This document shows, piece by piece, positions 11,186 to 38,041 of a stretch of 64,000 nucleotides of DNA. How positions within the stretch are numbered: position 1 is the stretch's first letter; every line of letters starts with the position of its first letter. The notes beneath the pieces are model-generated. The model worked only from the letters and a program-made list of their open reading frames with translations. It did not search any database and was not told where the DNA came from. The DNA is from Escherichia coli O157:H7 (GTDB lineage: Bacteria > Pseudomonadota > Gammaproteobacteria > Enterobacterales > Enterobacteriaceae): NCBI RefSeq assembly GCF_013167455.1, contig NZ_CP038328.1; one strand, given 5' to 3'. Position numbers and translations under genes: made by a program.

Positions 11186-11296
11186 TAAAAAGTATTCAGA
11201 ATCAGGCCGGGGCGTATCGCGCTCCGTAAACACGGTCGTACATCCAGCCGGTAGCCTGGTTCCTTGCATTGAGTGATGTACGGAGTTTATAGAGCA

Positions 11297-17895: not shown

Positions 17896-18672
17896 ATGTC
17901 CGAAACAAAAAATGAACTTGAAGACCTGCTGGAAAAAGCAGCAACCGAACCGGCGCACCGCCCGGCCTTTTTCCGTACTCTACTGGAATCCACCGTCTGG
18001 GTGCCTGGTACGGCGGCGCAGGGCGAGGCTGTGGTTGAAGATAGCGCGCTTGATTTACAGCACTGGGAAAAAGAAGACGGCACCAGCGTCATTCCTTTTT
18101 TTACCTCGTTAGAAGCACTTCAACAGGCGGTTGAAGACGAACAGGCATTTGTCGTAATGCCCGTTCGCACATTGTTTGAGATGACCCTTGGCGAAACGCT
18201 CTTCCTTAATGCCAAACTGCCGACCGGTAAAGAATTTATGCCGCGTGAAATCAGTTTGTTGATTGGTGAAGAGGGAAATCCGCTGAGCAGCCAGGAAATC
18301 CTGGAAGGCGGTGAATCGCTGATATTATCGGAAGTCGCAGAGCCGCCAGCACAAATGATTGATTCACTCACCACCTTATTTAAAACCATTAAGCCTGTGA
18401 AGCGTGCTTTTATTTGTTCAATTAAAGAGAACGAAGAGGCACAGCCTAATTTACTTATTGGCATTGAAGCCGATGGTGATATCGAAGAAATTATTCAGGT
18501 GGCGGGAAGTGTAGCGACCGATACATTACCTGGCGATGAACCAATCGATATTTGTCAGGTGAAAAAAGGGGAAAAAGGAATTAGCCACTTTATTACCGAA
18601 CATATTGCGCCATTCTATGAACGTCGCTGGGGTGGTTTTTTGCGTGACTTTAAACAGAATCGGATAATCTAA
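17896..18672 (+). CDS. sseB: Protein SseB (enhances serine sensitivity)
   Basis: ORF track frame 17887..18672; start chosen at MSETKNELEDL (258 aa). Confidence 0.88.
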   Translation: MSETKNELEDLLEKAATEPAHRPAFFRTLLESTVWVPGTAAQGEAVVEDSALDLQHWEKEDGTSVIPFFTSLEALQQAVEDEQAFVVMPVRTLFEMTLGETLFLNAKLPTGKEFMPREISLLIGEEGNPLSSQEILEGGESLILSEVAEPPAQMIDSLTTLFKTIKPVKRAFICSIKENEEAQPNLLIGIEADGDIEEIIQVAGSVATDTLPGDEPIDICQVKKGEKGISHFITEHIAPFYERRWGGFLRDFKQNRII

Positions 18673-19000
18673 AATATGCCGCCCCAAAGGGCGGCATTCG
18701 GGCTTACCTGCTGCTCTGAAGGTTGTTAATCACCAGTAAATTGTCGCCGGAGAGACTCCGGTTATTATTTACCTCGGTTAACAGCGCACCAGAAACAATA
18801 AGTACGATACAGAAGCACCGTATCTTCATTGTGCGGTCCATGCGAAGACCGCATCACGACAGCACCACTGGCGATATTGCCGCGATAGCAAGCACTGTGG
18901 GGTGCCTGTATTTACGGTCATGGAACATTCTTTCCTAAAGCCAGCGCCCGTTTGCGAGACGGCGAAAAGGGCCATTAAGAATAATACTCTCATGTTTGAA
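18670..19000 (-). ncRNA. ryfA: Candidate RyfA-type small RNA locus; boundaries and strand approximate
   Basis: 499 bp tail-to-tail sseB-sseA intergenic region; hairpin at 18677..18695 followed by T-run on minus strand; RyfA is recalled to map between sseA and sseB in E. coli. Confidence 0.3.
18705..18830 (-). CDS. Candidate small hydrophobic protein (41 aa), type I toxin-like (TimP-like?)
   Basis: Hand translation of the minus strand gives MKIRCFCIVLIVSGALLTEVNNNRSLSGDNLLVINNLQSSR; hydrophobic N-terminal 20 aa; no Shine-Dalgarno, and a 7 bp stem (tgcggtc/gaccgca) ends 3 nt before the ATG; below the ORF-track size cutoff. Confidence 0.35.
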
Positions 19001-35537: not shown

Positions 35538-36656
35538 ATGCATAACCAGGCTCCAATTCAACGTAGAAAATCAACACGTATTTACGTTGGGAATGTGCCG
35601 ATTGGCGATGGTGCTCCCATCGCCGTACAGTCCATGACCAATACGCGTACGACAGATGTCGAAGCAACGGTCAATCAAATCAAGGCGCTGGAACGCGTTG
35701 GCGCTGATATCGTCCGTGTCTCCGTACCGACGATGGACGCGGCAGAAGCGTTCAAACTCATCAAACAGCAGGTTAACGTGCCGCTGGTGGCTGACATCCA
35801 CTTCGACTATCGCATTGCGCTGAAAGTAGCGGAATACGGCGTCGATTGTCTGCGTATTAACCCTGGCAATATCGGTAATGAAGAGCGTATTCGCATGGTG
35901 GTTGACTGTGCGCGCGATAAAAACATTCCGATCCGTATTGGCGTTAACGCCGGATCGCTGGAAAAAGATCTGCAAGAAAAGTATGGCGAACCGACGCCGC
36001 AGGCGTTGCTGGAATCCGCCATGCGCCATGTTGATCATCTCGATCGCCTGAACTTCGATCAGTTCAAAGTCAGCGTGAAAGCGTCTGACGTCTTCCTCGC
36101 TGTTGAGTCTTATCGTTTGCTGGCAAAACAAATCGATCAGCCGCTGCATCTGGGGATCACCGAAGCGGGTGGCGCGCGCAGCGGGGCAGTAAAATCCGCC
36201 ATTGGTTTAGGTCTGCTGCTGTCTGAAGGCATCGGCGACACGCTGCGCGTATCACTGGCGGCCGATCCGGTCGAAGAGATCAAAGTCGGTTTCGATATTT
36301 TGAAATCGCTTCGTATCCGTTCGCGAGGTATCAACTTCATCGCCTGTCCGACCTGTTCGCGTCAGGAATTTGATGTTATCGGTACAGTTAACGCGCTGGA
36401 GCAACGCCTGGAAGATATCATCACTCCGATGGACGTTTCGATTATCGGCTGCGTGGTGAATGGCCCGGGTGAGGCGCTGGTTTCTACACTCGGCGTCACC
36501 GGCGGCAACAAGAAAAGCGGTCTCTATGAAGATGGCGTGCGCAAAGACCGTCTGGACAACAACGATATGATCGACCAGCTGGAGGCACGCATTCGTGCGA
36601 AAGCCAGTCAGCTGGACGAAGCGCGTCGAATTGACGTTCAGCAGGTTGAAAAATAA
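35538..36656 (+). CDS. ispG: 4-hydroxy-3-methylbut-2-en-1-yl diphosphate synthase (MEP pathway)
   Basis: 372 aa ORF; C-terminal Cys ligands CPTCSR...C. Confidence 0.94.
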
Positions 36657-36750
36657 TAACGTGATGGGAAGCGCCTCGCTTCCCGTGTATGATTGAACCC
36701 GCATGGCTCCCGAAACATTGAGGGAAGCGTTGAGGGTTCATTTTTATATT
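36657..36750 (+). ncRNA. sroE: Possible SroE sRNA (3'UTR-derived, ispG-hisS intergenic region)
   Basis: Assigned by position only: SroE is recalled to lie between ispG (gcpE) and hisS; hairpin gggaagcgcctcgcttccc is present. Confidence 0.3.
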
Positions 36751-36766
36751 CAGAAAGAGAATAAAC

Positions 36767-38041
36767 GTGGCAAAAAACATTCAAGCCATTCGCGGCATGA
36801 ACGATTACCTGCCTGGCGAAACGGCCATCTGGCAGCGCATTGAAGGCACACTGAAAAACGTGCTCGGCAGCTACGGTTACAGTGAAATCCGCTTGCCGAT
36901 TGTAGAGCAGACCCCGCTATTCAAACGTGCGATTGGTGAAGTCACCGACGTGGTTGAAAAAGAGATGTACACCTTTGAGGATCGCAATGGCGACAGCCTG
37001 ACTCTGCGCCCTGAAGGGACGGCGGGCTGTGTACGCGCCGGCATCGAGCATGGTCTTCTGTACAATCAGGAACAGCGTCTGTGGTATATCGGGCCGATGT
37101 TCCGTCACGAGCGTCCGCAGAAAGGGCGTTATCGTCAGTTCCATCAGTTGGGCTGCGAAGTTTTCGGTCTGCAAGGTCCGGATATCGACGCTGAACTGAT
37201 TATGCTCACCGCCCGCTGGTGGCGCGCGCTGGGTATTTCCGAACACGTAACTCTTGAGCTGAATTCTATCGGTTCGCTGGAAGCACGCGCCAATTACCGC
37301 GATGCGCTGGTGGCATTCCTTGAGCAGCATAAAGAAAAGCTGGACGAAGACTGCAAACGCCGCATGTACACTAACCCGCTGCGCGTGCTGGATTCAAAAA
37401 ATCCGGAAGTGCAGGCGCTTCTCAACGACGCTCCGGCATTAGGTGATTATCTGGACGAGGAATCTCGTGAGCATTTTGCCGGTCTGTGCAAACTGCTTGA
37501 GAGCGCGGGGATCGCTTACACCGTAAACCAGCGTCTGGTGCGTGGTCTGGATTACTACAACCGTACCGTTTTCGAGTGGGTGACTAACAGTCTCGGCTCC
37601 CAGGGCACCGTGTGTGCAGGCGGTCGTTATGACGGTCTTGTGGAACAACTGGGCGGCCGTGCAACACCGGCTGTCGGTTTTGCGATGGGCCTCGAACGTC
37701 TTGTATTGTTAGTACAGGCCGTTAATCCGGAATTTAAAGCCGATCCTGTTGTCGATATATACCTGGTGGCTTCAGGTGCTGATACACAATCTGCGGCTAT
37801 GGCATTAGCTGAGCGTCTGCGTGATGAATTACCGGGCGTGAAATTGATGACCAACCACGGCGGCGGCAACTTTAAGAAACAGTTTGCCCGTGCTGATAAA
37901 TGGGGTGCCCGCGTTGCTGTGGTGCTGGGTGAGTCTGAAGTGGCTAACGGCACAGCAGTAGTGAAGGATTTGCGCTCTGGTGAGCAAACGGCAGTTGCGC
38001 AGGATAGCGTAGCCGCGCATTTGCGCACGTTACTGGGTTAA
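36767..38041 (+). CDS. hisS: Histidyl-tRNA synthetase
   Basis: 424 aa ORF, GTG start; class II aaRS motifs. Confidence 0.94.

Follow-up and report, generated by a model that had tools for sequence, protein, structure and literature searches.

The spacer between ispG and hisS in Escherichia coli O157:H7 raises two linked questions, namely whether it gives rise to a small RNA and why so short a piece of DNA has been so strictly conserved among related bacteria. The window analysed here is the whole stretch of 64,000 nucleotides from contig NZ_CP038328.1 (assembly GCF_013167455.1), and all window coordinates refer to it. An earlier note on this DNA, made from the sequence alone, had placed the 3′-UTR-derived RNA SroE between the two genes, had pointed to a stable hairpin immediately after ispG and had left the ends of the RNA undelimited.

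Identity and predicted folding of SroE

The list of open reading frames and the sequence place the end of ispG (35538-36656, + strand) at 36656, with tandem stop codons TAATAA at 36654-36659, the second in-frame stop occupying 36657-36659. The coding sequence of hisS (36767-38041, + strand) starts with GTG at 36767. The spacer is thus 110 bp long and extends from 36657 to 36766, exactly as the earlier note had it. The names of the two genes come from K-12 and from an O157:H7 record with 100% identity, as annotated in RefSeq.

A search with the Rfam family sroE (RF00371, curated gathering score 51 bits) matched all model positions, 1-92 of 92, to window positions 36656-36747 on the + strand (116.6 bits, E = 1.8e-28). 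Over the 161 aligned bases of region 36630-36790, identity with E. coli K-12 MG1655 is 100%, and window coordinates are converted to K-12 positions by subtracting them from 2677342. In the K-12 annotation the non-coding RNA sroE (b4761) occupies 2640595..2640686 of the minus strand and shares one base with ispG, the final one of its stop codon. The 92 nt published for SroE (PMC6172242 supplement) agree letter for letter with window 36656-36747. In sequence, length, ends, strand and position between ispG (gcpE) and hisS nothing differs from the Rfam and K-12 element, and the identification of the spacer region as SroE is close to certain. The suggestion that SroE resides here is thereby borne out, and the comparison with published coordinates supplies the two ends, 36656 and 36747. 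The presence of SroE at this site was already known; what is added here is its overlap with the hisS promoter, described below. The automatic RefSeq/PGAP pipeline leaves sroE unannotated outside K-12, including in the O157:H7 record, although the element is present and intact in the O157:H7 sequence. SroE was reportedly described originally by Vogel et al. in 2003, and the existence of a discrete in vivo transcript of about 90 nt is said to rest on that description and on the K-12 annotation.

The hairpin noticed earlier has its core at 36666-36684, 10 nt past the stop codon, with arms GGGAAGCG (36666-36673) and CGCTTCCC (36677-36684) of 8 nt that are 100% complementary and enclose a loop of 3 nt. 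With its lower extension included (hairpin 1, 36660-36691, + strand), it folds at −16.5 kcal/mol with z = −4.5, none of 200 shuffled sequences folding as well. A second and larger hairpin, absent from the earlier note, follows at 36694-36740 (hairpin 2, + strand; −22.3 kcal/mol, z = −4.2). It consists of an outer 7-bp clamp, TGAACCC/GGGTTCA, around a variable inner stem, and is followed by the U-rich tail UUUUUAU (36741-36747, + strand), which ends at the annotated 3′ end of SroE. Hairpin 2 and its tail look like a terminator; a simple terminator scan of the E. coli site gave no terminator-like call for hairpin 2. For all 92 nt together, the folding energy is −40.1 kcal/mol (z = −4.7).

The hisS promoter and the transcripts that cross the spacer

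A transcription start near 36700-36703 was first predicted from the sequence, and two published data sets then matched it at G36701. In the start-site table of Kim et al. 2012, the entry 2638663 (old coordinates, minus strand, 6 reads) corresponds to window G36701, and the upstream 51-mer given for this entry, which ends in ...TGAACCCG, places the start at the same base. The SMRT-Cappable-seq data of Yan et al. 2018, a method specific for 5′-triphosphates, list the operon b2514|b2513|b2512 (hisS-yfgM-bamB) with its start at 2640641, again the same base (NC_000913.3, minus strand). G36701 (+ strand) is accordingly the primary start of hisS-yfgM-bamB. It is the only start within the spacer in the tables of Kim 2012 and Yan 2018, neither of which lists one at 36656.

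The −10 hexamer TATGAT (36688-36693, + strand) is part of the linker that joins the two hairpins; it precedes the start by 8 nt and matches the consensus at 5 of 6 positions. The −35-like hexamer ATGGGA (36664-36669, + strand) is situated 18 nt upstream of the −10 and agrees with TTGACA at 3 of 6 positions; that it serves as a −35 element is suggested by the mapped start. With hexamers of this quality at an 18-nt spacing, the promoter is missed by a consensus scan with a threshold of 9/12 matches. The bases that separate the −10 from the start are rich in G+C, and the promoter may on this account respond to stringent control.

The same consensus scan found no promoter-like site upstream of 36656. 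This fits an origin of SroE from the 3′ end of ispG transcripts, and together with the 5′ end inside the ispG stop codon it is consistent with a processed, 3′-UTR-derived RNA. One candidate promoter for the 36656 end was considered, TTGACG (36631-36636) and AATAAT (36652-36657). It was rejected, as its 15-nt spacer is too short, the scan did not call it and the tables of Kim 2012 and Yan 2018 hold no start for it.

Transcripts initiated at G36701 carry a 5′ UTR of 66 nt (36701-36766, + strand), which has neither hairpin 1 nor the 5′ arm of hairpin 2. Its first 47 nt lie within the SroE DNA, an overlap that the earlier note had missed. The start sits inside the 5′ arm region of hairpin 2, just past 36694-36700, so RNA from 36701 cannot form the clamp and thus not hairpin 2; the RNA 36701-36790 has no significant structure (z = −0.66). 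Further downstream lies a conserved ribosome-binding region, AAGAGAA (36755-36761, + strand), of which the arrangement AGAGAA-N4-GTG is kept in the alignment of orthologues described below (A2) and in other Enterobacterales.

Transcripts from further upstream also cross the spacer. The long reads of SMRT-Cappable-seq include ispG-hisS-yfgM and rodZ-ispG-hisS transcripts, that is, read-through from the ispG and rodZ promoters, and the Term-seq tables of Adams 2021 hold no 3′ end at or near 2640595. From these two observations, termination at hairpin 2 is partial at best. One SMRT-Cappable-seq entry begins at about 35361 (+ strand, K-12 2641981) in the 3′ part of rodZ and gives rise to ispG-hisS-yfgM transcripts; this start within the rodZ coding sequence likely marks an ispG promoter. 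Kim et al. 2012 also recorded a second, weak start (4 reads, old coordinate 2638974) at about 36390 (+ strand) inside ispG, which they assigned to hisS with a 5′ UTR of 377 nt and which is missing from the SMRT-Cappable-seq operon table.

Conservation of the spacer and promoter geometry in Enterobacterales

With a degenerate pattern for the 5′ coding end of hisS, 120 Enterobacterales loci were gathered. Wherever enough upstream DNA was available (117 loci), ispG was found directly 5′ of hisS without exception. The length of the spacer varied from 18-24 nt in Sodalis, Biostraticola and Acerihabitans up to 411 nt. About 55 spacers were sroE-like, all of them from Enterobacteriaceae, and 45 distinct ones make up alignment A2. 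The RF00371 threshold was passed in Salmonella, Klebsiella, Trabulsiella, Kluyvera, Enterobacter, Kosakonia and Mangrovibacter, and was not passed in Serratia, Yersinia, Pantoea, Pectobacterium, Rahnella, Erwinia, Edwardsiella and Photorhabdus.

Alignment A2 displays a nearly invariant block composed of TGGGAAGC, 5 variable bases and GCTTCC(C)GTGTATGATTGAACCC. Past this block comes a stretch that is wholly different between genera, and then the invariant GGGTTCA with the T-run. The linker GUGUAUGAU is invariant. The hexamer TATGAT was present in all 45 orthologues, and nTGGGA at the fixed spacing of 18 nt in 40 of them, reading ATGGGA in E. coli and TTGGGA in Klebsiella.

Across the genera in A2, hairpin 1 appears as a 7-bp stem with a 5-nt loop, the latter free in sequence and fixed in length. 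The interior of hairpin 2 cannot be aligned, yet it folds within the conserved clamp in all 45 orthologues. Members of the Enterobacter cloacae group have hairpin 2 reduced to seven base pairs around a loop of 5 nt, accompanied by eight T's, and the Enterobacter cloacae orthologue was called terminator-like by the scan. Over the 45 orthologues, the two conserved helices had standard pairs in 91.3% of the alignment cells, compared with 27-48% when the partners were slid. A compensatory change was seen in 6 cells only, and covariation is weak because the stems hardly vary. The predicted RNA structure is hence supported by conservation and not by compensatory change.

The start codon of hisS was GTG in 115 of the 120 loci and ATG in only five (L008, L054, L072, L107 and L108); in four of these five the ispG-hisS spacer measures only 18-24 nt. 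Insertions of about 95-195 nt were found in the spacers of L025 (2485-2669), L048, L012, L075, L112, L044 and L004. Their sequences (e.g. ...GCAACTTGAAGGATGA...GTATA) presumably resemble mobile repeats of the ERIC/IRU type. In Pseudocitrobacter the insertion splits hairpin 1, keeps TATGAT and supplies a hexamer ATGACG 16 nt upstream of it.

Outside Enterobacteriaceae another arrangement was identified at the homologous place. Thirty loci, from Serratia, Yersinia, Rahnella, Hafnia, Pectobacterium, Brenneria, Dickeya, Lonsdalea, Edwardsiella, Photorhabdus and Chimaeribacter, contain TTGAAn-N18-TATAAT-CGGGTTCA (or a variant) followed by a T-run, in most cases some 27-30 nt before the GTG of hisS. 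Promoters of this Serratia type score 10/12 in the consensus scan. At 9 of these 30 loci (Rahnella, Pectobacterium, one Serratia, Hafnia psychrotolerans, Chimaeribacter and one Edwardsiella) the 8 bases that follow the −10 are complementary over their whole length to a segment 5′ of the −35, so that the hairpin encloses the promoter and the predicted start falls at the 3′ foot of the hairpin. A promoter of E. coli at the place homologous to the Serratia-type TATAAT was considered and discarded, the sequence there being GTTGAG, which is not a −10. In spacers of the Serratia type the place of hairpin 1 is taken by a different G+C-rich hairpin followed by TGTTTATGAA, which in Serratia plymuthica (locus L049, 2954-2973, − strand) was called terminator-like; the TATGAT of Enterobacteriaceae may have arisen from this T-rich tail.

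A proposed junction of two transcription units and other explanations

The evolutionary and transcriptional data may be brought together as follows: The sroE locus would be a compact junction of two transcription units. The 3′ UTR of transcripts from the rodZ and ispG promoters would contain hairpin 1, the terminator-like hairpin 2 and the U-tail. Once such RNA was terminated or trimmed at about 36747 and cut at 36656, in the A/U-rich region of the stop codons, the stable, doubly clamped SroE of 92 nt would result. The same DNA would serve as the hisS promoter, with ATGGGA, the 18-nt spacer, TATGAT and the start at G36701 taken from the published start data, and the hisS mRNAs made from G36701 would lack the terminator and continue through hisS-yfgM-bamB. 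Such DNA would be under a double constraint, as promoter function would fix one arm or the linker, and the opposite arm would have to remain complementary for the RNA hairpin to form; this constraint is the best explanation we can offer for the near-invariance of both stems and the linker. SroE itself would be mainly a by-product of the ispG message or a protector of its 3′ end. Taken as a whole, we consider this model reasonably probable.

Overlapping junctions, in which the terminator-like hairpin of an upstream gene and the promoter of a downstream gene share one short spacer, are familiar from gene clusters. The sroE spacer is of this kind and differs in having its start within the 5′ arm of the terminator hairpin. 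The counterparts in Serratia, Rahnella and Pectobacterium differ from sroE in turn, with the whole promoter inside the hairpin and the predicted start at its 3′ foot. We put it at a little better than even that the conservation of sroE and its score as required in transposon libraries are due to this terminator-promoter module and not to the RNA, and that one principle is realised in two geometries across Enterobacterales. The principle, held with the same slight preference, would be that the hisS start is so placed that transcripts derived from its promoter lack one arm of the ispG terminator. The geometry suggested for Enterobacteriaceae, with the promoter upstream of the hairpin and the start in its 5′ arm, and that suggested for Serratia, Rahnella, Pectobacterium, Edwardsiella and others, with the promoter inside the hairpin and the start at its 3′ foot, are each favoured by a similarly narrow measure. 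Regarding SroE DNA in particular, its conservation is probably explained by the hisS start site in the same DNA.

Two other functions would give the conserved sequence a different meaning. SroE, treated in the literature as uncharacterised, could be a trans-acting, Hfq-dependent sRNA derived from a 3′ UTR that pairs with target mRNAs through its single-stranded linker. Its location at the 3′ end of an mRNA, the terminator-like hairpin with a U-tail and the invariant linker agree with this, as do its listing among the Hfq-associated sRNAs of nitrogen-starved E. coli, which a pure by-product model does not need, and a 1.75-fold fall of its level in a Klebsiella hfq mutant. However, when 10 predicted targets were tested in vitro in one study, 9 failed and the sole positive, ligB mRNA, bound weakly. 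(ARN)x Hfq motifs were absent from SroE, its U-tail is short and interrupted (UUUUUAU), its expression showed no significant differences between the nutrient conditions tested, and a search of the literature found no target validated in vivo. The invariance of the linker, moreover, is fully explained by the −10 hexamer of the mapped promoter. SroE resembles SroC (from gltI) and CpxQ (from cpxP) in following a stop codon and, probably, in carrying the terminator-like hairpin of the upstream mRNA and in having a 5′ end without a promoter of its own. It differs from them in having no validated target, in a weak or uncertain dependence on Hfq, and in that its conserved single-stranded stretch is the −10 box of a promoter and not a demonstrated seed. 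Its abundance is uncertain; in EHEC it was weakly expressed (RPKM 39). A trans-acting function is unproven and, in our judgement, unlikely. Even less probable is the proposal of Barquist et al. 2013 that the element is a T-box-like leader of hisS, a cis-acting attenuator sensing tRNA-His or histidine. They found sroE to be required in Salmonella transposon libraries, and the element always lies directly 5′ of the essential gene hisS, where hairpin 2 and its U-tail stand between the upstream promoters and hisS and can attenuate read-through transcripts. In E. coli and Salmonella a second copy of GGGAAGCG (36722-36729, + strand), a direct repeat of 36666-36673 in the 3′ half of hairpin 2, would also permit an antiterminator-like fold, since 36677-36684 can pair with either copy. 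This alternative is far weaker than the regular fold (−21.6 versus −40.1 kcal/mol), the terminator stays the best fold even when the 5′ part is blocked, and the repeat, judged by eye in A2, is confined to Escherichia, Salmonella and some Citrobacter rows and so missing from most genera; an antiterminator was rejected on these grounds. Since the mapped start, 36701, is within the element, hairpin 1 and the terminator are missing from the main hisS mRNA, whose 5′ UTR is not significantly structured. Inside hairpin 2 the sequence is not conserved, unlike what is seen in leaders that bind a ligand or a tRNA. Rfam returned no match besides sroE at E values up to 10, neither a T-box nor a histidine leader, and such a leader was rejected on this ground. 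The T-box leaders of Gram-positive hisS genes share with sroE the position directly 5′ of hisS and a terminator-like hairpin before the coding sequence, but there is no match in sequence or structure, and sroE, which contains the main start, is much too short for such a leader and carries neither a specifier nor a T-box motif. The required score itself would be accounted for because a transposon insertion separates the essential hisS from its promoter.

Two further readings are very improbable, and about equally so. A leader peptide might be encoded by an open reading frame of 46 codons (36703-36843), which is out of frame with hisS and rich in histidine codons, with six CAT, and the ratio of ribosome footprints to RNA over sroE in EHEC was 2.13. 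This ratio is based on about 63 reads over a region that touches the ispG stop codon and is close to the hisS start. The ATG of the frame is present in 12 of the 45 orthologues, all from the Escherichia/Salmonella/Citrobacter group, for which the frame was rejected; it lies within a stem and is not preceded by a ribosome-binding motif, and 5 of the 6 histidine codons are inside the hisS coding sequence, where they are constrained by the HisS protein. The label REP given to SroE in the RepRanger table would make the hairpin a repetitive extragenic palindrome. But the element is single copy and was rejected as a REP for this reason: 5425 of 5426 complete E. coli genomes contain it exactly once, and the hairpin motif has a single match across the 64-kb window. 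It also occupies the same syntenic site in every case.

The junction of ispG and hisS is the preferred reading, and it counsels caution, as neither conservation nor a transposon requirement is proof that the SroE RNA has a function when the bases that do not vary are also those of the mapped promoter of hisS, an essential gene for a tRNA synthetase. The 110-bp spacer also offers a small and clear example of how one transcription unit can end and the next can start without mutual interference of their signals.

Other RNA families were detected by full-length Rfam matches elsewhere in the window, namely ryfA (RF00126) at 18671-18975 on the − strand with 323.2 bits, and the iscR stability element iscRS (RF01517) at 11186-11295 on the + strand with 127.8 bits. 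Among the gathered loci, that of Yersinia pestis (L099) contained a match to the Yersinia sRNA Ysr224 (RF02770, 77 bits) at 2409-2529 on the − strand, outside the spacer.
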